This document shows positions 1 to 42,157 of a DNA stretch of 42,157 bases, one piece after another; positions within the stretch are counted from its first letter, which is position 1; each line of letters begins with the position of its first letter. The notes beneath the pieces were generated by a model that saw nothing but the letters and a program-made list of their open reading frames with translations, ran no database searches and was not told where the DNA came from. The translations under genes and the position numbers were made by a program. Origin of the DNA: a virus; IMG/VR virus record IMGVR_UViG_3300001199_000019, positions 1 to 42,157 of that record, one strand, 5' to 3'.

Positions 1-79
1 GCGGCCGTTACAGCTTCCACGGCGCGACCCATATCGGGATACTGCTACAGTCAACACCCTTGAACGGGGCGTCCCCAGC
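1..79. repeat. terminal overlap, copy 1 (identical to 42079..42157)
   Basis: Base-by-base identity read directly. It lies inside the recombinase ORF. Confidence 0.95.
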
Positions 80-11288: not shown

Positions 11289-11651
11289 TCAGTTTTTTCT
11301 TGCGGTCTCCGACAGGACTGAGCGGTTGACGATGGCGCTAAACAGCTCAATCACAAACTCGAACGGGATGCGCGCGACGTTGATCGCGCGGTCGGCGTCG
11401 AACGTCACTGGATTCCCCGCGGAGTCCGCGAAGTTTTCCCACCCGATCAGGCCGGCGCGCAGCGCGGTGCGCGCGCAGGCCGCCGTGGTGACCATCTGGC
11501 CATCGTCGTCGAATTTGATCATCGAGCGGATGCCGAACATCTCCACCCCATCGAGGGGCTTGAGATGAAACCGCGTCGGATTTTCTTTGCCTTCTTCCGA
11601 GACAGGCGTGTACCAGAACGGCGTGATGGGATCGGCAGCGCGAATAGCCAT
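11289..11651 (-). CDS. tail assembly chaperone G-like
   Basis: 120 aa ORF between the tail tube and tape measure genes. It ends AGA AAA AAC TGA. Confidence 0.6.
   Translation of the reverse strand: MAIRAADPITPFWYTPVSEEGKENPTRFHLKPLDGVEMFGIRSMIKFDDDGQMVTTAACARTALRAGLIGWENFADSAGNPVTFDADRAINVARIPFEFVIELFSAIVNRSVLSETARKN
11292..11298 (-). promoter_or_regulatory. -1 programmed ribosomal frameshift heptamer A AAA AAC
   Basis: An X XXY YYZ heptamer in the zero frame, 1 codon before the G-like stop. The -1 frame reads LIIAAHVAANRSKFD... into the T-like ORF without a stop. Confidence 0.7.
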
Positions 11652-11667
11652 GAATAAAACCCCTTGA

Positions 11668-12594: not shown

Positions 12595-12733
12595 TGACGG
12601 GCTCCTCGGGTTTGTCGGCGCTGGCGGGCTGGGTGGCCGGCGCGATCGTGACGGTATCGCCGGACGTCGGTTCGACGGTCATCGTCGGGACCTTGGGCGC
12701 TGGCGGTGCGGGATCTGGTTTGGGTTTGGCCAT
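12578..12733 (-). CDS. 51-aa Pro/Ala-rich small protein
   Basis: Strong GAGGAGG RBS 9 nt upstream of the ATG at 12733. It overlaps the tail tube start by 17 nt. Confidence 0.4.
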   Translation of the reverse strand: MAKPKPDPAPPAPKVPTMTVEPTSGDTVTIAPATQPASADKPEEPVNAEKP

Positions 12734-12752: not shown

Positions 12753-13205
12753 TTAAGCGCTGCCGTCGGCGCGCGAGCGCCGGTAAAGCACGGTCCACTC
12801 CATACGCAGCGACCCGGTGGGTTTGTCGCCATCGCCTTTCAGATCCGGCTCAGCCGGGCCTTCGAGCGAATCGAGGACAAACGCCAGGCCCTGCGTGTGG
12901 TCGGCGCGCAGCGCGACGATCGCCTCCTTGCGTATCTGGTTGAGCTGCGTATCCACCTGCGTGGCGGAGGTCTTGGACAGCGCCTCGATGAACACCGTAA
13001 GGCGGCTGTCGAGATACTGAAACGACGACGACGCGCCCTCGTCGTGCATCGGCACGTCCGGCCCGAGATACACCAGAATCGCCGGCAGCTTGTTGTCCGG
13101 CACCGGATGCACGCGCCCGCGGAACACGTTGGCGCCCGTGGTCGCGAGGCTGGTCACCTTGGTCACGAAGGCGGCGACAATCTGCTCGGCGCGGAGGTCG
13201 GCCAT
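12753..13205 (-). CDS. head-tail connector / tail terminator-like protein
   Basis: 150 aa. Called by position upstream of the tail tube gene. Its start overlaps the TAA of mini-ORF cassette C. Confidence 0.45.
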   Translation of the reverse strand: MADLRAEQIVAAFVTKVTSLATTGANVFRGRVHPVPDNKLPAILVYLGPDVPMHDEGASSSFQYLDSRLTVFIEALSKTSATQVDTQLNQIRKEAIVALRADHTQGLAFVLDSLEGPAEPDLKGDGDKPTGSLRMEWTVLYRRSRADGSA

Positions 13206-13249
13206 TAGTGTCTACCTGCTACGCGCTTCACGCTCGCTCGTCCGGTCAT
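13205..13249 (-). CDS. conserved 14-codon mini-ORF, copy C (MTGRASVKRVAGRH)
   Basis: ATG at 13249. The TAA shares its last A with the ATG at 13205 (TAATG). The 45 nt are near-identical to the copies at 18154..18198 and 20999..21043. Confidence 0.5.
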   Translation of the reverse strand: MTGRASVKRVAGRH

Positions 13250-13251
13250 AT

Positions 13252-17260: not shown

Positions 17261-18154
17261 TTAACGACTGAGCGATGCGTTGAGATCGGCCAAGTTGGCG
17301 CGGCGCTGTGCCACATCCGTCCTGTCCGCATTGAGTTTGGCGATCAGACCGTTCATCGTGGCAACACCGTCCACGAGTCCCGCGCTGACCGCCTGCTGGC
17401 CGGTGAAAACGCGACCGTCGGCCATGTTCTGTAACACCATCTCCGTGTCCACGCCGCGCTGCTTGGCGACATCGCCCACGAAAACAGAATAGAGGTAATC
17501 CACCATGTCCTGGATGTACTGCTGGCCAGCCTCGGACAACGGCTTGTGGCTAGAGGCGATGCGTTTGTACTTGCCGGCGAAGATTTCGGTGGTCTTCATG
17601 CCGAGCATTTCCTCGCGCCGGGAATAATCCGTGTGGCTCGCGACCACGCCGATCGATCCCACCTGAGCGGTGTCGGAACCGATGAACACCTTGTCGGCGG
17701 CGCTGCCGATCCAGTAAGCCGCCGAGGCCATCATGCCGTCCACGTAGGTGACGATGGGTTTCTGCCCGCGGGCGCCGTGAATCAGTTGCGCCAGTTCCTG
17801 CGTGCCGTCCACGGTGCCGCCGGGCGAATCCACCTGCAGCAACAGCGAATGCACCGCCGGGTCGGCCAAAGCGGCGCGGATGTCGCGCCCGATGAGTTCG
17901 GTGCTGGCCCCGCCGCTGATCTGCGAGAACAGGTTCATACGCTTGCTGACGACGCCGTCGATCGGGATCACCGCCACGCCGTCAATGACCTCGTAACCCT
18001 GTTCCTTGTTCTGCAGCGGCTGGCCGAGCTTGGCCTCGATGCCTTTGATGTCGATCTTGTCGCCGCGCAGATGCGTGGCGTAGATCGCCTGAATCTCTTG
18101 CAACTTGTCGGGGACGATGGCCCAGGGAGAATTCAAAACATCAATCACGCGCAT
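17261..18154 (-). CDS. S49-family (SppA/ClpP-like) prohead protease
   Basis: 297 aa with VDSPGGTVDG and MMASAAYWIGSAADKVF blocks. It lies directly after the portal gene. Confidence 0.85.
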   Translation of the reverse strand: MRVIDVLNSPWAIVPDKLQEIQAIYATHLRGDKIDIKGIEAKLGQPLQNKEQGYEVIDGVAVIPIDGVVSKRMNLFSQISGGASTELIGRDIRAALADPAVHSLLLQVDSPGGTVDGTQELAQLIHGARGQKPIVTYVDGMMASAAYWIGSAADKVFIGSDTAQVGSIGVVASHTDYSRREEMLGMKTTEIFAGKYKRIASSHKPLSEAGQQYIQDMVDYLYSVFVGDVAKQRGVDTEMVLQNMADGRVFTGQQAVSAGLVDGVATMNGLIAKLNADRTDVAQRRANLADLNASLSR

Positions 18155-18198
18155 TAACGTAGCCCTGCTACGCGCAGCGCGCTCGCTCGTCTTGTCAT
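18154..18198 (-). CDS. conserved 14-codon mini-ORF, copy B (MTRRASALRVAGLR)
   Basis: A GGAG RBS lies within the portal 3' end. ATG at 18198. The TAA overlaps the protease ATG (TAATG). Confidence 0.5.
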   Translation of the reverse strand: MTRRASALRVAGLR

Positions 18199-18202
18199 AA
18201 AA

Positions 18203-20787: not shown

Positions 20788-20999
20788 CAGCCGCCCGCGA
20801 GCGGCGCGACGTGCGCTGCCTGCTGGCCTTTGGGGCCCTCGACGGTATCGAACTCGACGCGCGAACCATCCTTGAGCGTGCGGTAGCCCGTGCCGTCGAT
20901 TGCCGTGTAATGCACAAACACGTCCGCAGAGCCGTCCTCGGGTGTGATGAAGCCGAAACCCTTCTTGGCGTCGAACCACTTCACGATACCGGTGCGCAT
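20787..20999 (-). CDS. csp: cold-shock domain protein (CspA family)
   Basis: 70 aa. [34 protein letters not shown] carries the RNP1-like (KGFGFI) and RNP2-like (VFVHY) motifs. Confidence 0.9.
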
Positions 21000-21043
21000 T
21001 AATGTCGCCCTGCTACGCGCTGCGCGCTCGCTCGTCTGGACAT
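20999..21043 (-). CDS. conserved 14-codon mini-ORF, copy A ([14 protein letters not shown])
   Basis: A GAGGA RBS lies 8 nt upstream of the ATG at 21043. The TAA overlaps the csp ATG (TAATG). Confidence 0.5.
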
Positions 21044-21057
21044 ATGAATTTCCTCGG

Positions 21058-27357: not shown

Positions 27358-29835
27358 TCACGCGCGCAACTCCTCCAGCACGCTCCTGAATTTGAAAAAA
27401 CATCCCGTCAGCCACTGCGCGGTGCTCGTGGCCTCGTCCTTCCATGCCCCCGCCTTGATGAGCGCCGACTCTTCCGGAATAACGACGCGCCGCGGGCGCG
27501 TGGGCCCGGCATAGGCGCACGACTCGTAGACGTGCCGGGGCTGGTTGCTCCAGCCCCTGATCTTGGCGACGTGGCCCAGGAACTGATTGCTCTCGCGCGG
27601 TCGCTGCACGCCGTTGGCGCGGCACCATCGGAGATAGGCGGCGTAGAGGTCCATGCTGGCGCACGGGCAGAACGGAAAATCGGTCTCGCCGGCCATCCAG
27701 TCCGAGATAAACCGCTCGACCGAGTCGAGCGAGATCGCGATGAGGTCGGTCTTGGCGCTGGTAACGGGCGGATCGGTCCACGGCCGGAAGTCGCCGAGAT
27801 CGAGATTGAGCAGGTAGTCATGCAGCGCCGCGCCGCCGCCGGCCTTTATCTCCGCGCTGACATCGTTGTAGAAGTCGCGCGACAGCTTCTCGGGCGTCCA
27901 GATGACGGTGAAGCGGCGGTCGTCCTTTTCGAGCACCAGCGGCTGGCGCTCGTTGGACAGGAACACGATGTTGACGTGGTTGCGCTCGTCGTGGGCGGCG
28001 ACGTTTTTCGGGTTGATGCGGATCCACTCGCCGGTGATGAAGCCCTTGAGTTTGTTCTTGGTGTGGAACAGCTCCTGGCGCGCCACGACCTCGTCGCCGA
28101 TAAGGAATAACTTCTTGCTCGCCCAATCGTTGAATTTGTCCTCGATCGCGGCCTGGTCGACGATGCGGCCGTAGGTGCCGTATATCCCCATGATGGCCTC
28201 GAAGAACAGGTTTTTGCCCACGCCCTGGGGGCCATGGAAAATCAGCGCTGTTTTCATCTTCGCGCCGGGATGCTGAATCGGGTACGCGAGCCACTTGAGC
28301 ACCCAGCGATTCACGTCGCGCGCGCCGGCATCCGATGAACACATGTATTCGAGCATCTCGAGCAGGTGCTCGCAGGAACCGGCCGCGGGCTTTGTCGGCC
28401 AGCCGCCCCAAAGGTTACAGCGGATGGTCTGGTCGGATTCCGTGGGGTCGAAACCGACCTCCTTGAGCCGCACCACCTTGCGTGCGGCGCGGGTCTTCCA
28501 TTCTTTCCAGCCGTGGTCTTGCAACAGATCGAGCACGTCTGGCTTCGGGACGAGCTCGTGCTCCTGGTGGTCGAACAACGTGCCGCGACCGCCGTAGACG
28601 AGCGAGTAGCGCTCGACGGCTTCCTCCACGGTGAGCACCGGTTTGAGCGGTTTGTCGCCCCCGTCCCCATCGTCCGGCGCAGCGAGCGGCGCGGGCGCCG
28701 AATGCACCCACCCCAACTCGGCGATCTTGGCTTCGGTCTGCGTCCGCACCACGTGAAGACCTTCGGCCAGGTGCAGGTCGTTGAAGTCGGTGATCTTCTT
28801 TTTGCCGCGATCCGTGGAAAAGACCGGCGCGATCCACCCGCCCCCTACAGCAAGCGCAGCGGCCTGTGCCTGTTCCACCCCCGTGTTGCCATGCGTATAG
28901 GCCGTGCCACACACAGGGCACTTGCCGAGCGAGACGAGGTCGAGCGTGCCGCAGGTCTGGTTCGGACAGCGGGCGAGGAAATCATCGTCGGCGCATACCA
29001 AAATGCGTGCGCGCGGGTACTGCCTGTGCAGTTTTTTGGCGACCGCCAGCAGGTTGCCGGCATCGAACGCCGCGGCCGTCGGGTAAGTCGTGGCCTCGTG
29101 CAGCGAGGCGGCGGTGGCGTATCCCTCGGTAAGCAGGACGATCCACGACGGCGCGCCGGTGAGAAGAAACAGGCCCTGCTTGGCTAGTCCGAACGGCCAG
29201 TATTGCTTGTTCGTATCCTCGCGTTTTTTCTTGACCTCGGGGCCGATGAACTGCAGTCCGCGCACCTGCGCGTGCTCGTCGTGCATCGGCACCACCAGCG
29301 TGCCGGTAGACGTGAACCGCGCGCCGTGGGCCTGCACGCCCTTCTCAATGAGGTAGGGGGACTCGCCGGTCGACAGGCACTTCTCCCACATCGTCCGCGC
29401 CCGGGCGGCCGCGCGCTCAGCTTCCCGCCGGCGCTGTGCCTCCTCGCGTTTCCGGTGTTCGGCGAGCCGGATACGGATCGCCTCCTTCTGCTCCTTTGTC
29501 AGCTCGCGCCGCTTGACGCTGGCCGATCCGCAGGCCGGGCATTTACGTTCCTTGAATGGGACGCTCTGCCGGCATTCCTCGCACTGCTTGGTGAGCTCGA
29601 TTTTTTGAGTGCCGGGGTCGTTGCCCTGGTAGACACCGAACGCACCGACCAGGTAGCAGCGACCGTCGATGTAGATATCGTGCAGCCAATACCAGCCGCG
29701 CTTCTCCCGGCCACGTCCCTCGACACGACACCGCGCCGACTTGCCGCCGCCGATCTGCAGCCCACCGTCGGGAATGATGAGCCCGACGGCACGCAGCTGG
29801 TTGAGCACGTCGTCGTAGTTATCGGCGACGCTCAA
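27358..29835 (-). CDS. bifunctional primase (Toprim) / SF3 helicase (P4/D5-type)
   Basis: 825 aa. TTG start with a GGAGAGG RBS. Zinc-ribbon CxxC pairs, Toprim-like LTEGYATA...CADDD, and a Walker A motif FHGPQGVGKN with downstream DUF5906/D5-like blocks. Confidence 0.85.
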   Translation of the reverse strand: MSVADNYDDVLNQLRAVGLIIPDGGLQIGGGKSARCRVEGRGREKRGWYWLHDIYIDGRCYLVGAFGVYQGNDPGTQKIELTKQCEECRQSVPFKERKCPACGSASVKRRELTKEQKEAIRIRLAEHRKREEAQRRREAERAAARARTMWEKCLSTGESPYLIEKGVQAHGARFTSTGTLVVPMHDEHAQVRGLQFIGPEVKKKREDTNKQYWPFGLAKQGLFLLTGAPSWIVLLTEGYATAASLHEATTYPTAAAFDAGNLLAVAKKLHRQYPRARILVCADDDFLARCPNQTCGTLDLVSLGKCPVCGTAYTHGNTGVEQAQAAALAVGGGWIAPVFSTDRGKKKITDFNDLHLAEGLHVVRTQTEAKIAELGWVHSAPAPLAAPDDGDGGDKPLKPVLTVEEAVERYSLVYGGRGTLFDHQEHELVPKPDVLDLLQDHGWKEWKTRAARKVVRLKEVGFDPTESDQTIRCNLWGGWPTKPAAGSCEHLLEMLEYMCSSDAGARDVNRWVLKWLAYPIQHPGAKMKTALIFHGPQGVGKNLFFEAIMGIYGTYGRIVDQAAIEDKFNDWASKKLFLIGDEVVARQELFHTKNKLKGFITGEWIRINPKNVAAHDERNHVNIVFLSNERQPLVLEKDDRRFTVIWTPEKLSRDFYNDVSAEIKAGGGAALHDYLLNLDLGDFRPWTDPPVTSAKTDLIAISLDSVERFISDWMAGETDFPFCPCASMDLYAAYLRWCRANGVQRPRESNQFLGHVAKIRGWSNQPRHVYESCAYAGPTRPRRVVIPEESALIKAGAWKDEATSTAQWLTGCFFKFRSVLEELRA

Positions 29836-31135: not shown

Positions 31136-31347
31136 CACGACGCCGCCCGTCGAATCGCAGACACAGCGCGCTGCAGCGGGTTGGGCGACTTAAATTTGCC
31201 GAGCCGTACAGCCGCACCAGTCACGCGGTCAATCTGCTCCTGCGGCAATTCATCCGGCCATTGGTAGATGGCCTGCGGCGTGATATCGAGCGCGGCCGCC
31301 AATTCCTTGACCGTGTTGAAAAGCGAGATTGCTTCGTGTTTTTTCAT
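31135..31347 (-). CDS. Cro/YdaS-like HTH regulator
   Basis: 70 aa. LFNTVKELAAALDITPQAIYQWPDELP is typical of Cro/YdaS-type proteins. It is divergent from the cI-like gene. Confidence 0.6.
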   Translation of the reverse strand: MKKHEAISLFNTVKELAAALDITPQAIYQWPDELPQEQIDRVTGAAVRLGKFKSPNPLQRAVSAIRRAAS

Positions 31348-31357
31348 AGGGGCGCAC

Positions 31358-31387
31358 ATGGTAAGCATTCTTACGTATAACAGTCAA
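31358..31387 (-). promoter_or_regulatory. cro-side early promoter candidate: TTGACT-N18-TACCAT with an embedded operator
   Basis: On the minus strand: TTGACT, 7 nt, then GTAAG-aatg-CTTAC. This architecture matches the promoter at 32732. Confidence 0.5.
31361..31374. promoter_or_regulatory. operator copy 1, GTAAG-N4-CTTAC
   Basis: A perfect 5+5 inverted repeat, read directly. Confidence 0.6.
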
Positions 31388-31419: not shown

Positions 31420-31433
31420 GTAAGCTGGCTTAC
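31420..31433. promoter_or_regulatory. operator copy 2, GTAAG-N4-CTTAC, abutting the repressor ATG
   Basis: A perfect inverted repeat ending 1 nt before the ATG at 31434. Half-sites CTTAC/GTTAC lie at 31392-31403. Confidence 0.6.
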
Positions 31434-31778
31434 ATGGAACTAAAGCAACGCATTAAAACAGCGAGAAAAGCAGCGCGGCTAACGCAAGAACAGCTCGCCA
31501 AGCGCGTGGGTGTTTCTCGGCCCGCCGTCGTGCAATGGGAGAGCGGCCATACCAAGGCGCTCGATGGTGCCAATCTCGTCCGCGCGGCTATAGCGACCGA
31601 TGTCGAGCCGCTGTGGCTTGCTACGGAGGAAGGACCAATGCACGCATACATGGTGCGGGACGAACCCTATACCGTGCCGCGCGATCTTGTTCAGGCATGG
31701 CAGTGCATGGACAAGAAATCACGCGACCACCTCCTTGCCATCGCAACCACACTGGCCGAGAAAAATAAAAGAGCTTAA
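31434..31778 (+). CDS. cI-like XRE-family repressor
   Basis: 114 aa. IKTARKAARLTQEQLAKRVGVSRPAVVQWESG is a classic XRE HTH. There is no Shine-Dalgarno sequence before the ATG. It is divergent from the cro-like gene. Confidence 0.75.
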   Translation: MELKQRIKTARKAARLTQEQLAKRVGVSRPAVVQWESGHTKALDGANLVRAAIATDVEPLWLATEEGPMHAYMVRDEPYTVPRDLVQAWQCMDKKSRDHLLAIATTLAEKNKRA

Positions 31779-31787
31779 GATAACGAC

Positions 31788-32162
31788 ATGGAATGGCTGA
31801 TCCTGTGGATCGGGTTGTCGGTGATCGCCGCCGTAATTGCAGCAAACAAAGGCCGTTCGGCTATTGGTTTCTTCTTCCTGGCCATCCTACTCTCGCCCAT
31901 CATCGGAATCCTTGCCGCCTTCATCGTGCAGCCGAACACTGCTCGCATCGAGGACGATAAGCTCGCCGGCGGCGAAACACGGCGCTGCCAGCATTGCGCT
32001 GAGATCGTCCGTTCGGAGGCGCGCATCTGCAAACACTGTGGCCGGGAGCTTGTACCCTTGGAAACAAATCATACCGAGGAGCAATGGGACCGGTTCGTAG
32101 CGACGCTTGAAAAGCGCCCGAAGACGCCACCAGCTACAGGAGATAAAAATGGCACTGATTAA
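31788..32162 (+). CDS. 2-TM membrane protein with a C-terminal zinc ribbon (lysogeny-operon gene)
   Basis: 124 aa. Two N-terminal TM helices, then CQHC...CKHC. It lies downstream of the repressor and upstream of the operon terminator. Confidence 0.6.
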   Translation: MEWLILWIGLSVIAAVIAANKGRSAIGFFFLAILLSPIIGILAAFIVQPNTARIEDDKLAGGETRRCQHCAEIVRSEARICKHCGRELVPLETNHTEEQWDRFVATLEKRPKTPPATGDKNGTD

Positions 32163-32655
32163 ATGCCATGAATGCGAGAAGGAAATCAGCGACGAAGCGA
32201 AGACATGTCCACACTGCGGCGCGAAACCAAAAACAGGCATGGGAATCGGTAAAGTATTAGTGCTGGCACTTTTCGTATTGTTCGTAATCTCCATGGTCAT
32301 GGGCAAAATTTCCTCCGAGAATGCGGAGGAACAAGAATCCACTCGGCGCTCGGCACTCACGCCAGCGGAGCGCGCGACCGAGGACAGGATAAGGGCCGCA
32401 GCAAAGAAAATCCCCGACGCGAGATGGGCCTGTCAGCAGGCACTCATACAAAGCCTGCACGACCCGGACAGCGCGAAACTTGAGCGCGCGAATACCTGGT
32501 ATGCCGAAAATCAGAAAGGCGGGACAGTCCTTGTTCAGCCGACTGGTCGCGCTAAAAACGCCTTCGGCGCCTATATCCAGGGCACATGGGATTGCGTGAC
32601 CAAACAGATTAACGGCAATACCGTGGTCCTGTCTTTGAAGCAAATACGCCCGTAG
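32149..32655 (+). CDS. N-terminal zinc ribbon / single-TM / extracytoplasmic-domain protein (lysogeny-operon gene)
   Basis: 168 aa. GGAGA RBS. CHEC...CPHC, a TM segment VLVLALFVLFVISMVMG, then a soluble domain with two Cys. The DNA is visibly AT-richer here. Confidence 0.6.
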   Translation: MALIKCHECEKEISDEAKTCPHCGAKPKTGMGIGKVLVLALFVLFVISMVMGKISSENAEEQESTRRSALTPAERATEDRIRAAAKKIPDARWACQQALIQSLHDPDSAKLERANTWYAENQKGGTVLVQPTGRAKNAFGAYIQGTWDCVTKQINGNTVVLSLKQIRP

Positions 32656-32681
32656 TTACCAGCTTCTCGCCCTACTGCTAA

Positions 32682-32708
32682 AGCCCCGCTCTGCGGGGCT
32701 TTTTGCTT
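32682..32708 (+). terminator. rho-independent terminator of the repressor operon
   Basis: An 8-bp stem AGCCCCGC/GCGGGGCT and a 3-nt loop, followed by TTTT. Confidence 0.8.
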
Positions 32709-32731: not shown

Positions 32732-32760
32732 TTGACACGCTATCGTAAGTGTGCTTACAC
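32732..32760 (+). promoter_or_regulatory. early-operon promoter candidate (PL-like) with embedded operator copy 3
   Basis: TTGACA, 7 nt, then GTAAG-tgtg-CTTAC (operator at 32745..32758). The spacing matches the cro-side promoter. Confidence 0.55.
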
Positions 32761-32771
32761 TGCCCACCGTC

Positions 32772-32901: not shown

Positions 32902-33309
32902 ATGCCAACTGCCGAAGCCGCCCAGCAAGCCACCGACCTCGAGTACCCGCTCACCATCGCGTTCCCACAGATCAACCCGGGCGAGAAATTCGCCGGCGTC
33001 ATCGTGAGCGCCGACGGCAAGTACCGCCACGCCTTGATTCTGCTGCCCGGCGAAGCCGAGCCGAACAACTGGCAGGCGCAGATGGAGTGGGCGGCGAGCA
33101 TCGGCGGCGAACTGCCAGACCGCGTCGAAGTCGCGCTCTTGTTCGCCACGCTACGCGATGAGTTCAAGCCGGAATGGTACTGGACCAACGAGCAGCTCGC
33201 CGCGGGCAGCGACTGTGCCTGGCTGCAGATTTTCGGCTACGGCACCCAGAGCTACGGCCCCAAGTCGGACTACGCCCGCGCACGTGCTGTCCGCAGATCG
33301 CCCATTTAG
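32902..33309 (+). CDS. DGR target protein 2 (DUF1566 / C-type-lectin-fold-like, VR at the C-terminus)
   Basis: 135 aa. AAGGAG RBS. The C-terminus WYWTNEQLAAGSDCAWLQIFGYGTQSYGPKSDYARARAVRR is homologous to the TR. Confidence 0.8.
   Translation: MPTAEAAQQATDLEYPLTIAFPQINPGEKFAGVIVSADGKYRHALILLPGEAEPNNWQAQMEWAASIGGELPDRVEVALLFATLRDEFKPEWYWTNEQLAAGSDCAWLQIFGYGTQSYGPKSDYARARAVRRSPI
33192..33299 (+). repeat. variable region VR2
   Basis: It aligns without gaps to TR 37962..38069. In a hand alignment, the differences fall on TR adenines except at TR T38044. Confidence 0.8.
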
Positions 33310-33331
33310 TCATTCAGCAATTTAACAATTT
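33306..33331 (+). promoter_or_regulatory. conserved AT-rich element downstream of VR2
   Basis: TTAGTCATTCAGCAATTTAACAATTT matches 22 of 26 positions of the element after VR1. It is absent after the TR. Confidence 0.5.
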
Positions 33332-33343
33332 CGGGAGGCCGCC

Positions 33344-36205: not shown

Positions 36206-36607
36206 ATGGGATATATGACGGATGGACTGACGTTCAACACGCTACGCGCTGGCAATGTTGCGCGGTTGCCTACGTTCAAAAACAAACACGGCCAACTTGC
36301 CCACGATAAAGCAGATGGGTCGGATTGGTCGCCCGCCCAGTGGCTACAAGCGACCGTCGGGGAACTGGGTGAATACGCGAACATCCGCAAAAAATTTGAA
36401 CGTGGCGATTTAACCGAAGCCGAGTTCATGCGTGAAGCTACGCGCGAGTTGGCCGATGTGCAGATATATCTCGACCTGTTGGCGTTCCGGTTGGGCATCG
36501 ATTTAGGTCACGCAACAATGGAAAAGTTTAACGAAGTCAGTGCGCGGGTTGGAAGTCCGATCACCATAGATGCAGACGGTTGGCATCGCATCCAGCGAAG
36601 CCACTGA
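36206..36607 (+). CDS. MazG-like nucleotide pyrophosphohydrolase
   Basis: 133 aa. The ATVGELGEYANIRKK....REATRELADVQIYLDLLA helical pair is typical of the MazG/dimeric dUTPase-like family. Confidence 0.65.
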   Translation: MGYMTDGLTFNTLRAGNVARLPTFKNKHGQLAHDKADGSDWSPAQWLQATVGELGEYANIRKKFERGDLTEAEFMREATRELADVQIYLDLLAFRLGIDLGHATMEKFNEVSARVGSPITIDADGWHRIQRSH

Positions 36608-36828
36608 TGGTCGTGTACTTCCACAACCGTCACACCGAACCGCTGCAGGGGCTCATCCGGCGCTTACAGGCCGAGCCGGACCTGACGTCGGCCGAGACCG
36701 ATGCGCTGACCGATCTCACGCGCAACATCGAGCACGAAACAACCTGCGCGCCCTATCGCCTGTGGCAGCGCGACCAGATTAAAACGGAGAAACACGATCC
36801 ACAACCCGCAATCTCGGAGGCACCATGA
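36607..36828 (+). CDS. hypothetical protein
   Basis: 73 aa. TGATG overlap upstream and ATGA overlap downstream. Confidence 0.4.
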   Translation: MVVYFHNRHTEPLQGLIRRLQAEPDLTSAETDALTDLTRNIEHETTCAPYRLWQRDQIKTEKHDPQPAISEAP

Positions 36829-37439
36829 AGACCAGCACTAAAACCCCCACCATCCCCGGCACCGCCTTCGGCGGCGGGTTCTATGTCGGCCGCATCCGCG
36901 TCGACGACGCCGAATACGCTCTTATCGTTGCGCCGAAGGCCGAGGGCCAGCACGCCGACGGACCGTGGAACGAGTCGTCCGCCAGCGTGAAAGGCGCACG
37001 GAGCTACTGCGACGGACTCGCCAACACGAAGGCCATGGCCAAGGCGGGCAGCAAGCTCGCGCAGTGGGTGCTGGGGCTGCGCAGCGGCGGACACAAGAAC
37101 TGGTATCTGCCGAGCCAGGACGAGCTGGAGCTTTGCTATCGCCATCTCAAGCCCGGCACCGGGGGAAACTCGCTCTATGGCCGCTCGGGGCTGAACATCA
37201 GCGCGGTGCCGCCGACCTACCCCTACTGCACCGATGCCGCGAAGCAAACCAAGGCCAAAGCATTCCGCGAAGGCGGCGCACAGGCGTTCGATCAGGCCTG
37301 GTACTGGAGCTCAACGCAGCTCGCCGCGGACAGCGCCTATGCCTGGATGCAGCATTTCGGCTACGGCTACCAGTACGACGACCACAAGTCGTACGGCGGC
37401 TCGCGCGCACGTGCTGTCCGCAGATTAGTTATTCAGTAA
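36825..37439 (+). CDS. DGR target protein 1 (DUF1566 / C-type-lectin-fold-like, VR at the C-terminus)
   Basis: 204 aa. The NWYLPSQDELELCY block is typical of DUF1566. The C-terminus WYWSSTQLAADSAYAWMQHFGYGYQYDDHKSYGGSRARAVRR is homologous to the TR. Confidence 0.85.
   Translation: MKTSTKTPTIPGTAFGGGFYVGRIRVDDAEYALIVAPKAEGQHADGPWNESSASVKGARSYCDGLANTKAMAKAGSKLAQWVLGLRSGGHKNWYLPSQDELELCYRHLKPGTGGNSLYGRSGLNISAVPPTYPYCTDAAKQTKAKAFREGGAQAFDQAWYWSSTQLAADSAYAWMQHFGYGYQYDDHKSYGGSRARAVRRLVIQ
37312..37425 (+). repeat. variable region VR1
   Basis: It aligns to TR 37958..38068. In a hand alignment, about 12 differences fall on TR adenines, with one T-to-G difference and one 3-nt insertion near the 3' end. 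Confidence 0.85.
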
Positions 37440-37450
37440 TTTAATTATTT
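37425..37450 (+). promoter_or_regulatory. conserved AT-rich element downstream of VR1
   Basis: TTAGTTATTCAGTAATTTAATTATTT matches 22 of 26 positions of the element after VR2. Confidence 0.5.
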
Positions 37451-37461
37451 GGTTTTTCAGC

Positions 37462-37818
37462 ATGGCCTTTCATACCGATTTGCAGATTTACAAGGTCGCC
37501 TACGACCTGCTGGGCGTGGCCGGCGATTACGTGCGCAACATGCCGCGCCCGATCAAGGCTGCGCTCGGCAACCGGGTGACCGAGCTGTGCGTTGAGATCG
37601 TGCTGTTGATTGCCAAGGCAAACAGCGTCCGGGACAAGGTGCCGCCTCTCGAAACCTTGCTCGAACGCAACGAGGAACTGAACCTGCTACTCCGGCTCTG
37701 CAAGGACAAGCGGTTTATTTCCCTCAAGCAGTACGCCGCGGCCATTGGTCTCACCGCCAGCGTCGGCAAACAGGCCAACGGATGGAAAAAACACAATGCA
37801 GCGTCGCCCGTTGCCTGA
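37462..37818 (+). CDS. avd: accessory variability determinant (Avd, four-helix-bundle protein)
   Basis: 118 aa. The helical pattern with a basic C-terminus (GKQANGWKKH) is typical of Avd / 23S rRNA IVS-type four-helix-bundle proteins. It lies between the target and the TR. Confidence 0.8.
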   Translation: MAFHTDLQIYKVAYDLLGVAGDYVRNMPRPIKAALGNRVTELCVEIVLLIAKANSVRDKVPPLETLLERNEELNLLLRLCKDKRFISLKQYAAAIGLTASVGKQANGWKKHNAASPVA

Positions 37819-37942
37819 CCGTCACGGCGGTCTGGCCTGTGCGACTTTTGATCTGGTCGCGCCGCTGGCCCACGAGGCCACCGCTATGCACGCGCGAGAC
37901 CACTCCGGTGCAGTTCCCCCGCTGAACATTCGGCGGGGCGAC

Positions 37943-39190
37943 ATGGAATGCGCGAACCAACGCAGCACGCCGCGAACAGCGACTATGCCTGGATGCAGAA
38001 TTTCGGCAACGGCAACCAGAACAACGACCACAAGTCGAACAACTACCGCGCACGTGCTGTCCGCAGATCACTGCCATCCGGGCCATGCTGACTTTTCTTT
38101 CGAGGAGTTGGTGGTCGCGTATTTCGACTGCCGGCGCACCAAGCGCAACAAACCCTCGGCGCTCGCCTTTGAGCAGGACCTGGAGCGCAACCTGGTACGG
38201 CTCCACGACGAGCTGCAGGCCGGCACCTACCGCCCGGGCGCCTCCGTCTGCTTCGTCATCACGCGGCCCAAGCCGCGCGAGGTATGGGCGGCGGACTTCC
38301 GCGATCGCATCGTCCATCACCTGCTCTACAACCGCATCGCGCCCCGGTTCTACGCCACGTTCATTGCCGACTCCTGTGCCTGCATCCCGGGCCGCGGTAC
38401 GCTCTACGCCGCCCAGCGTCTCGATGCCAAGGTGCGCTCGATCACGCAGAACTGGTCCCGGCCGGCGTGGTACCTCAAGTGCGACCTCGCCAACTTCTTC
38501 GTCTCAATCGACAAGCGCATCCTGCGGGATCTGCTGGCCAAGCGTATCACCGAACCATGGTGGCTGTGGCTGGCCGAGACCATCCTGTTCCATGACCCGC
38601 GCCCGGACGCGGTGCTGCACAGCCCGGCGGAACGCCTGGCGCTGATCCCGCCGTACAAGAGCCTGTTCAACCAAGACGCCGACCACGGCCTGCCGATCGG
38701 CAACCTGTCGTCGCAATTCTTCGCCAACGTCTACCTGGACAGCCTCGACCAACACGTCAAGCACAAGCTGCGCGCGCGGCACTACATCCGCTACGTCGAC
38801 GACTTCGTGCTGCTGCACGAATCGCCGCAGTGGCTCAATGCCGCGCTGGCCGACATCGAGGCCTTCCTGCCAGAGGTCCTGGGTGTCCGGCTGAACCCGA
38901 CCAAGACCATCCTGCAGCCGGTTGTGCGCGGCATCGACTTCGTCGGCCAGGTCATCAAGCCCTGGCGCCGGACCTTGCGTCGACGCACGTTCAACGAGGC
39001 CCTGCACCGCGTGAGTGGTATGGACGCCGGCGACCTGTTCGAGTCGGCCAACAGCTACTTCGGCCTGCTGCGCCAAGCCACGCACAGCCACGCCGACCGC
39101 GTGCGGCTGGCGAGGATCGTTCGCCGACGCGGATTCGCGGTGAACGGGACGCTGACCAAGACTTACCGCGGGAGAAATCAAAGAGCATGA
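37943..39190 (+). CDS. DGR reverse transcriptase
   Basis: LPIGNLSSQFFANVYL (the DGR-type IGxxxSQ motif), the IRYVDDFVLL catalytic box, and FRDRIVHHLLY. The start is uncertain: in-frame ATG at 37943 or 37985, or GTG at 38054. The conserved N-terminus begins near 38090. Confidence 0.85.
   Translation: MECANQRSTPRTATMPGCRISATATRTTTTSRTTTAHVLSADHCHPGHADFSFEELVVAYFDCRRTKRNKPSALAFEQDLERNLVRLHDELQAGTYRPGASVCFVITRPKPREVWAADFRDRIVHHLLYNRIAPRFYATFIADSCACIPGRGTLYAAQRLDAKVRSITQNWSRPAWYLKCDLANFFVSIDKRILRDLLAKRITEPWWLWLAETILFHDPRPDAVLHSPAERLALIPPYKSLFNQDADHGLPIGNLSSQFFANVYLDSLDQHVKHKLRARHYIRYVDDFVLLHESPQWLNAALADIEAFLPEVLGVRLNPTKTILQPVVRGIDFVGQVIKPWRRTLRRRTFNEALHRVSGMDAGDLFESANSYFGLLRQATHSHADRVRLARIVRRRGFAVNGTLTKTYRGRNQRA
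37958..38069 (+). repeat. template repeat (TR)
   Basis: In the VR reading frame it reads NSDYAWMQNFGNGNQNNDHKSNNYRARAVRR, with seven AAC codons. The 3' 22 nt are identical in TR, VR1 and VR2. Confidence 0.85.
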
Positions 39191-40534: not shown

Positions 40535-42157
40535 ATCCACGGACGACAACGACAAAAACGAGGACAGCAAGTCGGTCACGCGCCAGGTGGCGCATGCCCG
40601 CGACTACATCGCCGGCAAGGGCTGGACCCTCGACGACGCCCACGTCTACGTGGACGACGATGTCAGCGGCGCCGAGTTCAAAAACCGCCCCGGCCTGCTG
40701 CGACTGCTCAACCACCTGAAAGAGTTTGACACGGTCGTGATGTCCGAGTTCTCCCGGCTCGGGCGCGAACAAAGCAACACCGCGATCGTGCTGGCGCAGA
40801 TACACGCCGCCGGCGTGCGGGTGTTCTTCTACCTCACCGACGAGGAGCTGCGCTACGAATCGGCGATCGAGAAATTCATGGTTTCGGCCGCCGCCTTCGC
40901 GGCCGAGCTGGAGCGCGAAAAAGCATCGCAGCGGGCGCGGGATGCGGCGCTCAAGCGTGCGCGGGAGGGGAAAAACTTTGGCGGGCGGGCGTACGGCTAT
41001 GACAACGTGCCGGTTTACGGCGCAGCCGTGAACGGCCAGGAAGTGCGCACGCATACCGACTACCGCATCAACCCGGATGAAGCCGAGGTCGTGCGCGGGA
41101 TCTTCCGCGCCTGCGCCGGCGGGCGCGGGCTAACGGCCATCGCCAAGGCGCTGAACGGCGACCCGGGATGCCGCGACATCGCCGAGCGATACTTCGATGG
41201 CAAACAACCGCCACCGCCGCGCAAGGGCACGGGCTCCTGGGCGCCGTCGAGCGTCCGTGAAATCCTCCACCGGCCGCGCTACACCGGCAAGATACCGTTC
41301 GGCGAACACCGCAAGGTCCTGCGCGCCGGCTCGACCGCGCGCGTGCGCCAGGCTAACTACTTGCTCACGGAGCGCCCGGACCTGCGCATCGTCCCCGACG
41401 ACCTATGGATAGCCGTGCAGACGCGCCTGAAAGCGCTGCACGCGCAATACAGCCACCTGAACACGGGCCGGGTCGAGTCAAAATACCTCCTGAGCGGCCT
41501 GATGCGTTGCGAACACTGCGGCGGGCCGATGGTCGGAACGACCGTGTCCGTCGGATCGTACGGGAAGCGCCGACGTGTACCGCGTTATTCCTGCAGCTAC
41601 GCCAACACCCGCGGCGTGACCGTCTGCACAAACAACTGCAAACCGGGCATCGAGGTCCTCGACGGGCAGGTGCTGGACGCGATCGAGCAAATGGCCCTGT
41701 CCCCAGCCGCAGTGCAGCGAGTGCTAGACCTTGTGGTCGAACGCGCCAGAGCCGAGCGCCAGCAAAGCCCAACGCGTCGGCGAGACATGGAAGCGGAGCG
41801 GCGGAAACTACAACAGGAGATCGACCGGCTGGTCGCGCTGGTGGTCGGCGGGAGAGCGCCGGCGAGAATACTCGAGGAAATCACGCGGCGGGAAGTGCGA
41901 CTGAAGGAGATGGAGCGTCAGCCGGCGGTTACCGGCAAAATCGACCCGCGACGCATCGAGGCCATGGCGTTCGAGCGCATCGCGGACTTCAAGGGCCTGC
42001 TGCGCAGCAGGCCCTCCGAGGGCCGCCATGCGCTTCGGCAACTTCTTGCCGGCCACATCGCCTTCCGGGTGCTGGAAGGCGGCCGTTACAGCTTCCACGG
42101 CGCGACCCATATCGGGATACTGCTACAGTCAACACCCTTGAACGGGGCGTCCCCAGC
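40506..42157 (+). CDS. large serine recombinase (integrase), 3' end runs off the window and continues at nt 80..143
   Basis: AILARKSTDD catalytic-Ser block, SEFSRLGRE, a recombinase domain, a zinc-ribbon block (CEHCGG...YSCSY...C) and a coiled-coil C-terminus. There is no stop before 42157. Confidence 0.9.
   Translation, partial: MPRAAILARKSTDDNDKNEDSKSVTRQVAHARDYIAGKGWTLDDAHVYVDDDVSGAEFKNRPGLLRLLNHLKEFDTVVMSEFSRLGREQSNTAIVLAQIHAAGVRVFFYLTDEELRYESAIEKFMVSAAAFAAELEREKASQRARDAALKRAREGKNFGGRAYGYDNVPVYGAAVNGQEVRTHTDYRINPDEAEVVRGIFRACAGGRGLTAIAKALNGDPGCRDIAERYFDGKQPPPPRKGTGSWAPSSVREILHRPRYTGKIPFGEHRKVLRAGSTARVRQANYLLTERPDLRIVPDDLWIAVQTRLKALHAQYSHLNTGRVESKYLLSGLMRCEHCGGPMVGTTVSVGSYGKRRRVPRYSCSYANTRGVTVCTNNCKPGIEVLDGQVLDAIEQMALSPAAVQRVLDLVVERARAERQQSPTRRRDMEAERRKLQQEIDRLVALVVGGRAPARILEEITRREVRLKEMERQPAVTGKIDPRRIEAMAFERIADFKGLLRSRPSEGRHALRQLLAGHIAFRVLEGGRYSFHGATHIGILLQSTPLNGASP
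42079..42157. repeat. terminal overlap, copy 2 (identical to 1..79)
   Basis: Base-by-base identity read directly. Confidence 0.95.

Follow-up and report, generated by a model that had tools for sequence, protein, structure and literature searches.

The experimental paradigm for diversity-generating retroelements (DGRs) is BPP-1 (mtd-avd-TR-brt), whose target Mtd, a protein of 381 aa at the tip of the tail fibre, is encoded in the late/tail region. All characterised phage DGR targets are receptor-binding proteins (Wu 2018; Roux 2021), and Wu et al. (2018) describe layouts with multiple and remote targets in 15% of DGRs. Targets of the DUF1566/CLec2 class (category 'd' of Wu et al. 2018, including Legionella LdtA) carry a C-terminal VR on a PF07603 (Lcl_C/DUF1566) domain; LdtA and the Fib_succ_major-type members are exported surface lipoproteins. 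Two viral target clusters, PC_00009 and PC_00007, were labelled 'non-structural/unknown' by Roux et al. (2021): predictors called only 1.6-15.8% of them structural, and the authors left open that they might be unrecognised structural proteins. PC_00009 is proteobacterial, viral and often multi-target, with a prophage in a Chromobacteriaceae betaproteobacterium as its reference; genomic context, expression signals and cis elements lay outside the scope of that study. Finally, the genome note of Burkholderia phage Magia (MT701587) describes a DGR with targets in two short ORFs of one operon (Gafford-Gaby et al. 2021, PMC7883833).

The window analysed here (the whole 42,157-nucleotide IMG/VR record IMGVR_UViG_3300001199_000019, a complete circular phage genome of ~42.1 kb with identical 79-bp ends) almost certainly carries a complete canonical DGR. 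It shares with BPP-1 the gene order target - avd - template repeat (TR) - reverse transcriptase (RT), an Avd together with an RT that belongs to the same clade (its best PDB match has E 4e-38), adenine-specific TR-to-VR differences, and a C-terminal VR on a C-type-lectin-type fold. It differs in its 135- and 204-aa targets in an early operon, in the RT-15 RNA 5' of the TR, in a TR inside the RT ORF, in an IMH that equals IMH* over 22 nt, and in the AT-rich periodic motif that follows the VR where BPP-1 has a GC-rich hairpin. Target 1 resembles the DUF1566/CLec2 class in its domain and VR position, but both window targets are without an export signal and lie in a phage early operon. PC_00009 and PC_00007 are candidate counterparts among phage-encoded targets.

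Magia resembles the window in its RT (74% identical at the nucleotide level), in the order small target(s) - avd - RT-15 RNA - TR - RT, in a remote target that is the first plus-strand gene past the immunity repressor, and in the location of the cassette, which lies in a repressor - RecT - integrase arm as it does in the repressor-to-integrase arm of the window. Two of its proteins, gp46 and gp57, are full-length homologues of target 2. However, the two phages differ in tail type (Magia is a myovirus according to its genome note, the window a J-type siphovirus), in integrase (tyrosine in Magia, serine in the window) and in neighbours (RecT/nuclease against ParB), and their flanking early genes are not related to each other. 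Three VRs are present in Magia, of which the one in gp46 goes unmentioned in PMC7883833, against two in the window, and Magia lacks a 200-aa DUF1566-type target.

A complete DGR with a remote second target

The first-pass annotation had proposed a complete DGR in the order target - avd - TR - RT, and all of its listed features were recovered in place (Table 1), including the 204-aa target and the 118-aa avd as ORFs. The full cassette reads target 1 - avd - RT-15 RNA - TR - RT, and target 2 lies 4.1 kb upstream of it; this second VR-bearing gene, absent from the earlier coordinates, bears out the plural 'targets' of that annotation. The avd product also matches NCBIfam DivGenRetAVD (1.1e-13, below its cut-off). 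The RT-15 RNA fills the avd-TR gap, beginning in the 3' end of avd and reaching the first TR bases. All related loci tested (9 of 9, Magia, LPPA56, QDWS and SC_8 among them) have it at the corresponding place.

Table 1. Features of the DGR, its targets and the surrounding phage genes, in window coordinates
Feature	Position	Strand	Evidence or remark
Cro-like regulator	31138..31347	-	Pfam P22_Cro E 1.2e-10, above gathering score
Two operators GTAAG-N4-CTTAC	31361-31374, 31420-31433	.	between cro-like and repressor-like genes
HTH repressor-like gene, CI position	31434..31778	+	Pfam HTH_3 E 4.9e-13
Two zinc-ribbon proteins with hydrophobic segments	31788-32162, 32149-32655		after repressor; Zn_ribbon matches
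Terminator-like hairpin and T-run	32680..32702	+	10-pair stem, 7 G-C pairs, then TTGCTTT
Promoter-like site TTGACA-18-TACACT	32732..32761	+	contains third operator copy 32745-32758
Target 2, 135 aa	32902..33309	+	first gene past operator-bearing promoter
VR2	33188-33299	+	3' end of target 2; IMH 33277-33298
AT-rich element, ~7-nt period	33300..33335	+	just 3' of VR2 (ATTTAGTCATTCAGCAATTTAACAATT)
ParB-like protein, 548 aa	33747..35393	+	Pfam ParB_N 2.2e-29, HTH_ParB 3.1e-15
Target 1, 204 aa, single DUF1566/C-type-lectin-like domain	36825..37439	+	Pfam Lcl_C 2.9e-10, above gathering score
VR1	37312-37425	+	in target 1; IMH 37404-37425
AT-rich periodic element	37426..37455	+	just 3' of VR1 (TAGTTATTCAGTAATTTAATTATTTGG)
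avd (accessory variability determinant), 118 aa	37462..37818	+	Pfam bAvd 5.9e-14, above gathering score
Structured RNA, Rfam RF03018 (RT-15)	37802..37962	+	131.4 bits (gathering score 82), E 7.6e-31, full-length model
Template repeat (TR)	37958..38069	+	IMH* 38047-38068 (CGCGCACGTGCTGTCCGCAGAT)
DGR reverse transcriptase	38054..39190, start uncertain	+	RVT_1 6.7e-16
Large serine integrase, 571 aa	40506..42157, on into 80-143	+	Resolvase 4.6e-23, Recombinase 5.2e-15, Zn_ribbon_recom 5.3e-11

Both the DGR signature and the IRYVDDF box claimed for the RT are present in the ORF ending at 39190, whose motifs comprise LPIGNLSSQFFANVYL, IGNLSSQ and IRYVDDF/YVDD. The best solved relative is a DGR RT, the 328-aa RT of 8ub7 and related entries (E 4.4e-38), whereas group II, retron and Drt RTs match at 2e-9 or weaker; the window RT is thus nearest the BPP-1-type DGR RT structure by ~29 orders of magnitude over other RT classes. 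From 37745 on, and through the TR, the RT frame has no stop, and the conserved ADFSFEEL N-terminus starts at 38087, so initiation must be upstream; GTG 38054 (inside IMH*) and ATG 37985 (inside the TR) are candidate starts, and the choice between them is uncertain.

Read in the VR frame, the TR holds the seven AAC codons noted before plus one AAT. The differences on computed alignment are adenine-biased, with 12 of the 32 TR adenines changed in VR1 (binomial P 4e-6) and 15 of 32 in VR2 (P = 1.4e-7). An earlier hand count for VR1 (about 12 of about 29) was right in the changes and low in the denominator. VR1 had also been said to differ almost nowhere else; this holds for one T>G (TR 38044) and one boundary mismatch, but there is in addition a 3-nt insertion, TCG, at 37401-37403. 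The insertion is found neither in the TR nor in any of 34 aligned homologues. T38044>G is common to both VRs and is the sole non-A substitution in VR2; one change in the TR itself would explain it. The 22-nt IMH is identical (22/22) in the TR (IMH*) and both VRs, and the 21 variable codons of the TR allow for about 10^17.6 different proteins. When the whole window was scanned on both strands with tolerance for adenine changes, no VR beyond VR1 and VR2 came up; neither the fibre-like gene (2588-3454) nor the J-like gene (3856-7743) therefore has a VR, as first proposed.

The AT-rich element that follows VR1 spans the last codons of target 1, its stop and the gap before avd. Within the window, the motif ATTNA-N2-3-ATTNA-N2-3-ATT is confined to the two VR flanks. 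Across related loci totalling 1.1 Mb it is located 3' of 87 of the 176 VRs, with one match elsewhere, and it was not found after the TRs of the window or of the related loci. The RT-15 RNA in the avd-TR gap and this AT-rich 7-nt motif, present at the VRs and not at the TR, are the details that are new here.

Target proteins

The first-pass annotation assigned the targets to DUF1566. The assignment is solid for target 1, but the Lcl_C match of target 2 is weak (E 5e-4, below the Pfam cut-off). For the AF2 model of target 1 (pLDDT 83, pTM 0.85), the best PDB neighbour is the C-terminal domain of Lcl (8q4e, prob 0.98), and C-type lectins come next with weak matches, consistent with the lectin fold that the first-pass annotation had proposed to look for; the model of target 2 is poor (pLDDT 58). 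The two targets have only their C-terminal 50 residues in common, and target 2 has a family of its own (620 homologues, 135-155 aa). As had been noted, the targets are small and have no signal peptide; nor was a transmembrane segment, a lipobox or an N-terminal docking domain found among 164 unique targets (signal peptides were assessed by a hydropathy heuristic and not by a trained predictor). The lectin fold is preceded by only ~12 poorly conserved residues, and the targets gave no PADLOC match.

Close homologues vary where a DGR would act. In one 90%-identity cluster of 203-aa homologues, all 16 variable columns (16/16) fall at residues 165-191 and none at 1-164, and in another 90%-identity cluster, 15 VR columns hold 2 to 6 different residues, versus 4 variable columns elsewhere. 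This hypervariability points to a DGR family that is active in nature.

The immunity switch and the early operon

The lambdoid assignment was borne out: the P22_Cro regulator, HTH repressor, J-like central fibre, tape-measure protein and large serine integrase mark the genome as that of a lambda-like temperate siphovirus, and its bacterial host is probably a betaproteobacterium. The Cro-like gene, which opens the rightward minus-strand arm leading to the replication and late genes, and the repressor gene (NCBIfam DicA/RstR matches weak) are divergently transcribed. The operator GTAAG-N4-CTTAC has exactly 3 copies in 42 kb, even at 1 mismatch (chance expectation 0.27; 0 of 100 shuffled sequences reached 3 copies); two are at the switch and the third is found only in the promoter upstream of target 2. 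The position 3' of the repressor, that of rex/sie in lambda, is taken by two zinc-ribbon proteins, and the hairpin closes the repressor transcription unit. The operator-bearing promoter-like site is located just past this strong terminator and 140 nt before target 2, and is read here as the PL/OL analogue driving the operon headed by target 2, in a promoter scan that overall showed no enrichment (4 sites found versus 2.6 expected). A ribosome-binding site (AAGGAG) is found 8 nt before ATG 32902 of target 2.

The predicted operon runs from this promoter through target 2, ParB, target 1, avd and RT to the serine integrase at its end, whose ORF crosses the circular junction because window positions 1-79 repeat 42079-42157. 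All DGR parts are on one strand, between the Cro/repressor switch and the integrase, and ATGA stop/start overlaps couple target 1 (its start with the stop of the upstream ORF) and the RT (its stop with the next start, at 39187) to adjoining early genes. The label 'MazG-like' for ORF 36206-36607 was not upheld by any Pfam, PHROG or NCBIfam match at the thresholds used. As placed by the first-pass annotation among early genes, the DGR very probably lies in a repressor-controlled leftward early operon and not in the late operon.

Related loci

The context had been called unusual. It is indeed neither tail nor late, but it is usual for the RT clade: 2-4 small targets (median 156 aa) are found upstream of the RT in 76 of 80 related IMG/VR contigs and in three cultured phages, and Magia is prior art. 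The layout is common to more than 200 IMG/VR contigs, to ~80 prophages and to cultured phages. Neighbours in the clade are S24 repressors, RecT/ERF/YqaJ, ParB (in 36 of 166 related loci a homologue is close to the cassette), methylases and 32 integrases, while virion families are essentially absent near the cassettes, the sole listed match being a Gp53-like_C tail-fibre domain downstream of the RT. The flanking early genes are not conserved, suggesting that the cassette moves as its own module.

Non-diversified proteins with the fold and size of the window's small DUF1566 protein are encoded by the temperate Pseudomonas phages D3 (Q9MBK5/225-aa ORF) and Medea1 (gp71 and gp72). Like the window targets, they lie downstream of the repressor within the recombination-integrase arm and have a conserved C-terminal ...R(V/A)R(P/A)VRR motif; unlike them, they have no avd, TR or RT nearby. 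An IMH and an AT-rich relic persist in Medea1 gp71, suggesting loss of the DGR there.

Role of the targets

We favour, with a probability of about 0.55, the reading that a lambda-like phage DGR diversifies two soluble early non-virion binders. That the targets are non-virion early binders is by itself about an even bet, and an intracellular role is plausible; the labels 'early' and 'non-virion' are drawn from sequence signals and the order of the genes. It is unlikely that the targets are instead virion components, that is, stand-alone receptor-binding or adhesin modules docked non-covalently on the capsid, the J tip or the tail fibres. On this view the DGR would be a means of changing host range, as it is in BPP-1 and as the Magia authors proposed (PMC7883833), and its early-operon site would be an accident of cassette insertion. 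Such a role matches the receptor-binding targets of all characterised phage DGRs and the surface adhesins formed by bacterial DUF1566/Lcl domains (8q4e). In BFVD, the target fold caps large fibre-like viral proteins at the C-terminus (Peptidase_S74, collagen-repeat, one annotated 'tail fiber protein'), ACA phages encode an antireceptor apart from the fibre shaft, and the cassette is only ~5 kb from the fibre genes on the circular genome. However, the targets are encoded on the strand opposite the late genes, in a separate operator-controlled operon, and have no docking domain ahead of the lectin fold. The target-2 family is found with both myovirus (full-length in Magia) and J-type siphovirus tails, and the non-diversified homologues of D3 and Medea1 occupy the same post-repressor position. 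The recombination, methylase and integrase neighbours of the clade and the few structural calls by machine learning in the two viral clusters (Roux 2021) also argue against a tail role.

Action outside the infected cell or in the lysogen is improbable. The targets could be soluble lectins released at lysis that coat receptors or cell debris, or prophage-expressed exclusion/defence factors that recognise incoming phage or the molecules of competitors. Lectin folds typically have glycans or surface ligands as their targets, DGR-less homologues persist in Medea1 and D3, and the stretch directly past the repressor unit, a frequent site of lysogenic-conversion/exclusion genes, holds target 2 in the window and the homologue in D3; but in the window a strong terminator splits target 2 from that unit and an operator lies in its promoter, predicting repression in the lysogen, and the targets are without a secretion signal (hydropathy heuristic), effector domain or PADLOC match. 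Just as doubtful is a decaying relic, with VRs frozen from past homing and proteins now evolving conventionally. The intact RT ORF with its catalytic motifs, the intact avd, RT-15 RNA, TR and both IMHs, and the hypervariable close homologues argue against it. The TCG insertion of VR1 and the shared difference at TR 38044 would fit a relic, but DGRs that are considered active are documented to have both indels opposite AAC codons and occasional changes at non-A positions (Wu 2018), and a single TR change would account for the latter. Medea1, which seems to have lost the cassette yet keeps targets, and the identity of VRs within the few near-identical contig pairs at hand are also consistent with decay.

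The early-operon small-target DGR is a catalogued but uncharacterised clade of which the window is a member. Under the favoured reading, and by analogy with BPP-1, the operon would be de-repressed after infection or induction, and the RT-Avd complex would copy TR RNA into cDNA, misincorporating opposite adenines. The cDNA would replace VR1 and VR2, guided by the common 22-nt IMH and probably also by the VR-specific AT-rich 7-nt periodic flank, and up to 21 codons would be rewritten on that face of a conserved lectin-type scaffold which binds the ligand. The weakest step is that both targets would be soluble, early-expressed proteins outside the virion and, judging from context, not tail receptor-binding proteins. 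They may have a variable ligand inside the infected cell or on its surface, the leading candidates being host factors (defence or takeover targets).

A complete retroelement with two variable repeats

The first-pass annotation had described a complete diversity-generating retroelement (DGR), and both component HMM matches and adenine-biased differences between the template repeat (TR) and its variable repeats (VRs) confirm this; every ORF, motif and coordinate that it listed is present. The reverse transcriptase (RT) ORF contains the IGNLSSQ and YVDD motifs and matches RVT_1 of Pfam (E = 6.7e-16). A sequence search of solved RTs agrees with its affiliation to DGRs, as the 328-aa RT of entries 8ub7-8ube was found with E = 4.4e-38, whereas group II, retron and Drt RTs reached 2e-9 at best. 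Judging from chain length, these entries are probably the BPP-1 bRT. The avd product (118 aa) matches bAvd of Pfam (52.9 bits, gathering score 40, E = 5.9e-14) and, under the 80-bit cut-off, DivGenRetAVD of NCBIfam (E = 1.1e-13). The RT reading frame is open right through the TR. The conserved N-terminus of the RT (ADFSFEEL) begins at 38087, at most 18 nt from the TR end (38069), with no in-frame start between the two; a TTG at 38108 lies 38 nt from the TR end. The RT probably starts at GTG 38054 or ATG 37985, both inside the TR.

Comparison of the TR with VR1, at the 3' end of target 1, places 12 of 13 substitutions at adenines, the other being T>G, so that 12 of the 32 TR adenines are substituted; the hand count in the first-pass annotation had given about 12 of about 29. 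VR1 further carries an extra TCG codon (37401-37403) and a single mismatch at its boundary. VR2, at the 3' end of target 2, differs at 15 of 32 TR adenines (15 of 16 substitutions at adenines). Given that adenines make up only 30% of TR positions (32/108), the binomial probabilities of this bias are 4e-6 (VR1) and 1.4e-7 (VR2), and the bias thus stands for both VRs in the computed alignment. Adenine mutagenesis can change 21 TR codons, corresponding to about 10^17.6 protein variants. Both VRs stop 10-14 nt short of the stop codon of their target. When both strands of the entire window were scanned with adenine mismatches tolerated, VR2 was the sole further copy besides VR1; no VR is therefore present in the J-like or fibre-like genes, as had been stated earlier.

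Both VRs have a G where the TR has a T (38044), and neither the TR, VR2 nor any of the 34 aligned homologues has the extra TCG codon of VR1. This suggests either that the TR changed after the last homing or that mutagenesis was non-canonical.

A predicted early-left operon in a lambdoid genome

The window (G+C 62%) has identical 79-nt ends (1-79 and 42079-42157), which mark it as an assembly of about 42,078 bp that is circular (or terminally redundant). Its junction cuts the serine integrase gene, which finishes at 143. The earlier label of lambdoid is borne out by P22_Cro and HTH_3 genes, three operators, a serine integrase, and the J, tape-measure, portal, large terminase (TerL) and major head protein genes; by ORF size alone, the stretch from the head genes to the tape-measure gene has no ORF large enough for a sheath. 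From its gene content, the phage is fairly described as a lambdoid temperate siphovirus.

Features of the phage genome and of the DGR region
Feature	Position	Strand	Remarks
J-type central tail fibre	3856-7743	minus	phrog_31, E = 2.9e-160
Fibre-like gene	2588-3454	minus	
Tape-measure protein	between head genes and J-type fibre	minus	
TerL, portal, major head protein	after primase	minus	
Primase	27358-29835	minus	
51-nt element, three copies	13200-13250, 18149-18199, 20994-21044		each intergenic
P22_Cro-family gene	31138-31347		Pfam; divergent from repressor-like gene
Operators	31361, 31420, 32745-32758		first two between cro-like and repressor-like genes
HTH repressor-like gene	from 31434	plus	HTH_3
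Two zinc-ribbon proteins	31788-32162, 32149-32655	plus	hydrophobic segments; genes overlap
Terminator-like hairpin	32680-32702	plus	10-bp stem and T-run; closes repressor unit
Promoter-like site	32732-32761	plus	TTGACA-18-TACACT, perfect -35 box; right after terminator; encloses third operator
Target 2, 135 aa	32902-33309	plus	between zinc-ribbon and ParB-like genes
VR2	33188-33299	plus	
ParB-like protein, 548 aa	33747-35393	plus	ParB_N and HTH_ParB
Several small ORFs	3' of ParB-like gene	plus	followed by target 1, avd, TR, RT
Target 1, 204 aa	36825-37439	plus	
VR1	37312-37425	plus	
avd	37462-37818	plus	
RT-15 RNA	37802-37962	plus	RF03018
TR	37958-38069	plus	
Four small ORFs	after RT	plus	
Large serine integrase, 571 aa	40506 across junction	plus	last, after four small ORFs

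The genome has exactly three copies of the operator palindrome, GTAAG-N4-CTTAC, also at one mismatch (0.27 expected; none of 100 shuffles gave three). Because an operator-bearing promoter follows the repressor terminator, target 2, whose ATG (32902) has an AAGGAG ribosome-binding site, would be the first gene of a PL-like operon. The order of repressor unit, terminator and operator-bearing promoter mirrors the cI-rex-terminator/PL-OL arrangement of lambda. A window-wide promoter scan gave no enrichment over shuffles. ATGA overlaps join the stop of the preceding ORF to the start of target 1 and the stop of the RT to the start of the next gene, which suggests that the cassette is translationally stitched into the operon. 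The placement of the DGR among early genes, proposed earlier, is thus backed by three lines of sequence signals (operator, promoter/terminator and ATGA overlaps), which argue that the DGR lies in an operator-controlled early-left operon on the strand opposite the tail genes. The label 'MazG-like' for one neighbour was given up, as neither Pfam, PHROG nor NCBIfam supports it.

The zinc-ribbon gene pair lies between the repressor-like gene and the terminator, a position occupied in lambdoid phages by rexAB/sie-type exclusion genes expressed in the lysogen. In the late region, the copies of the 51-nt element are 76-90% identical. Each takes in the initiation codon of a late gene on the minus strand (e.g., those that start at 13205, 18154 and 20979), and none folds better than shuffles (z from -0.6 to +2); the element may serve the late operon as a common signal for translation or transcription. 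Between the integrase and fibre genes, two minus-strand genes (1209-1631 and 1633-2229) encode a DUF5675 protein and a weak match to the PHROG 'enoyl-CoA hydratase-like moron'. The annotation searches of the window identified no canonical endolysin or holin.

An RT-15 RNA and an AT-rich flank

The 140 nt that separate avd from the TR match the RT-15 RNA of Rfam over its full length (131 bits, gathering score 82), the match ending at the TR beginning, and RT-15 has the identical position in all nine related loci examined, four of them from cultured phages. In Weinberg et al. (2017), RT-1 to RT-19 are motifs close to RT genes, and RT-10 alone, the BPP-1 spacer between TR and brt, is tied to a DGR. 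The Rfam scan of the window found no RT-10; RT-15 sits 5' of the TR, and the candidate RT starts lie inside the TR, unlike the arrangement in BPP-1. From its position, we assign RT-15 to the avd–TR spacer of this DGR clade, on the opposite side of the TR from RT-10.

A 22-nt GC-rich block (CGCGCACGTGCTGTCCGCAGAT) is the same in the TR, VR1 and VR2, with its three adenines intact, and the sequences part right after it. Directly 3' of this block, both VRs, and not the TR, have an AT-rich element with a period of about 7 nt (e.g., ATTCAGTAATTTAATTATT). Within the window, the pattern ATTNA-N2-3-ATTNA-N2-3-ATT is confined to the two VR flanks. Related loci (1.1 Mb) have it after 87 of their 176 VRs and at one other place. 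No GC-rich hairpin is present at the VR flanks, and such hairpins were reported in only 34% of DGRs by Wu et al. (2018), who also reasoned that recognition must reach downstream if IMH and IMH* (the matching 3'-end blocks of VR and TR) are the same. The AT-rich flank is thus an obvious candidate for an acceptor signal beyond the identical IMH/IMH*.

Two families of small target proteins

Target 1 matches Lcl_C/DUF1566 (PF07603) with 40.9 bits (cut-off 34.9, E = 2.9e-10), whereas target 2 reaches 20.7 bits, under the threshold; the earlier description of the targets as DUF1566 proteins is therefore solid for target 1 only, although some homologues of target 2 carry PF07603 or the NCBI name DUF1566. 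Target 1 has 1,395 detectable homologues, the best 120 of which are nearly all about 200 aa long with PF07603 alone. Its AlphaFold2 model is a single domain (pLDDT 83, pTM 0.85), in agreement with the lectin fold that had been put forward for checking. The best PDB neighbour of this model is 8q4e, the C-terminal domain of Legionella Lcl (probability 0.98), followed by weak C-type lectin matches; a sequence search of solved structures with target 1 gave no meaningful matches. Target 2 falls in a family of its own, with 620 homologues of 135-155 aa. Its model (pLDDT 58) was kept out of the fold search owing to this low score, and the order of its secondary structures is compatible with a short lectin fold. 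Pfam detects no Mtd or fibre domains in either target.

Three other relationships were considered and dropped. Targets 1 and 2 are not simple paralogues, as profile comparison aligns their C-terminal 50 residues only. PADLOC matched neither the targets nor their neighbours, generic RT models aside, which led us to reject a defence system. A plasmid leading-region origin was also rejected, as a tblastn search of target 1 against 72,556 plasmids found nothing.

The target 1 alignment has a rigid scaffold (residues 1-165) and hypervariable VR positions. Among homologues of 203-211 aa clustered at 90% identity, one cluster has all of its 16 variable columns at residues 165-191, and another has 15 VR columns with two to six residues each versus four variable columns elsewhere. 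Such VR-confined variation is, on these alignments, a signature of DGR activity in natural populations and not of the window genome specifically. The few near-identical IMG/VR contigs compared (L016-L019; L062/L073) have identical VRs. Whether the copy in the window is an inactive relic is a separate question, and we consider this improbable.

A clade of early-region retroelements

IMG/VR holds 206 relatives of the RT. Two to four adenine-mismatched VRs, on the RT's strand and upstream of it, were found in 76 of the 80 relatives fetched, and Burkholderia phage Magia, Shewanella phage QDWS and Pseudomonas phage SC_8_H2H8_2017 likewise have two to four VRs upstream of the RT. The VR-bearing ORFs (n = 176) have a median length of 156 aa (range 115-457). 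By a hydropathy heuristic, essentially all of 164 unique targets lack signal-peptide-like, transmembrane and lipobox features, consistent with the earlier remark that the targets lack an obvious signal peptide. The context, called unusual in the first-pass annotation, is so when compared with experimentally studied DGRs, but it is the norm for this clade (76/80 relatives) and has precedent in the literature. Approximately 80 prophage copies were found, mostly in Betaproteobacteria. Those of Sterolibacterium and Hydrogenophilaceae are the closest (75% identity); Paraburkholderia, Janthinobacterium, Burkholderia, Dechloromonas and Gallionella have further copies, and Pseudomonas and Geobacteraceae account for some.

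Among the larger ORFs around related cassettes, Pfam scans detected integrases (27 tyrosine, 5 serine), 18 DNA methylases, ParB and DUF5131 downstream of the RT, and 12 S24 repressors, HTH proteins, ParB, YqaJ, RecT, ERF and RdgC upstream; the virion-related matches comprise one listed tail-fibre domain. ParB is the only recurring partner gene (36 of 166 related loci). The ParB-like gene lies up- or downstream of the cassette within mosaic early regions, and its product may function in partition, as a nuclease or in anti-restriction. The small ORFs that flank the DGR in the window are not conserved in related loci, bar one that recurs in a single locus, which suggests that the cassette travels as a module.

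Parts of this clade have been described. The genome announcement of Magia (MT701587) reported Avd, RT and two 'lectin fold' targets in the short ORFs 47 and 57, located these in the repressor-to-integrase arm and suggested a role in host range or adaptation (PMC7883833). We found a third adenine-mismatched VR in Magia (8230-8319 of its locus, L001), within gp46 (7876-8340). This 154-aa 'hypothetical protein' is encoded between gp47 and avd, and the published note names genes 47 and 57 only. Magia is a myophage with sheath and baseplate (PMC7883833), whereas the window is a J-type siphovirus, and both share the target 2 family over its full length (hhalign E = 1e-46 and 1e-39). In BPP-1, the target is the tail fibre Mtd, encoded in the tail module, in contrast to the 135- and 204-aa targets encoded here in an early operon on the opposite strand.

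Wu et al. (2018) assigned 14% of DGRs to the DUF1566/CLec2 target class and described multi-target and remote-target DGRs. Roux et al. (2021) classed viral targets as 'tail structure' or 'unknown', and their supplementary note lists two viral clusters as non-structural/unknown, perhaps unrecognised structural proteins; one of these, PC_00009 (proteobacterial, viral, multi-target), probably includes the target family of the window. Broad literature searches on intracellular, early or anti-defence DGR targets yielded generic papers only, and no paper was found on the early-operon context, operator-controlled promoter, RT-15 or AT-rich flank described here. The clade is thus already catalogued, and annotated in one case, and the window adds a member; the strongest new points are the operator-linked promoter of target 2, RT-15 in the avd–TR spacer, the VR-specific AT-rich flank and the clade-wide context statistics.

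Small DUF1566 genes also occur in many Pseudomonas phages. In phi_D3 (D3; L085), a homologue (4782-5459) lies a few genes downstream of the repressor, with no DGR nearby. Medea1 (L086) has tandem DUF1566 genes (11298-11909 and 11986-12606) between ERF/YqaJ/SSB genes and methylases, with no avd or RT near the pair. The first of them ends with GTCCGCAGAT, followed by an AT-rich periodic flank, and looks like a VR left after loss of the DGR. Distant small homologues (~29% identity) are present in D3, PMG1, U7, U9, Haboob, PAN70 and FBPa42 and in the jumbo phages 30-3 and Callisto, and the small DUF1566 family appears to be broader than the DGR clade.

Possible functions of the targets

Our main reading, to which we give a probability of about 0.5, is that the targets are early, soluble binders that are not part of the virion. 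The operon placement with its operator, the lack of export signals or a docking domain in the targets and the early-gene neighbours across the clade all point to this. So do the full-length target 2 family in both the myophage Magia and the J-type siphovirus of the window, the non-diversified D3 homologue at the identical post-repressor position, and the Medea1 homologues between recombination genes and methylases, one of which keeps an IMH and an AT-rich relic without an RT. On the other side, all characterised phage DGR targets are receptor-binding proteins, separately encoded antireceptors are known, and in BFVD the fold forms the C-terminus of large fibre-like proteins (Peptidase_S74, collagen-repeat, 'tail fiber protein'). 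These observations would suit targets that are virion-associated receptor-binding adaptors, which we regard as rather unlikely when set against the early-operon evidence. An extracellular role of the targets, or one in the lysogen, seems to us less probable still.

To our knowledge, prokaryotes and their viruses have no natural means of targeted protein hypermutation other than DGRs, and we know of no phage DGR whose function has been shown for proteins other than tail receptor-binding proteins. The clade is large (>200 viral contigs, ~80 prophages mostly in Betaproteobacteria and several cultured phages). If its targets act inside the cell, this would be a second role for phage DGRs, for example in counter-defence or host takeover, and the targets would be compact natural scaffolds (120-200 aa) that tolerate about 10^17 variants. 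An intracellular or defence-directed function is attractive and, from sequence, unproven; target function is directly testable, since both Magia (host B. cenocepacia) and LPPA56 (host P. aeruginosa) are cultured phages. The RT-15 assignment and the VR-specific AT-rich motif offer leads on how acceptor and donor are told apart in DGRs without a GC hairpin. More speculatively, and in our judgement doubtfully, the clade may equip temperate phages with small cytoplasmic lectin-fold binders that form a self-diversifying library and are produced as infection begins; variants that neutralise host immunity or takeover targets would be selected from it. The cis architecture of the clade would be distinct as well, with RT-15 on the 5' side of the TR and a periodic AT-rich acceptor signal. 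If true, phages would have their own equivalent of an antibody repertoire, directed against intracellular host factors and not surface receptors.
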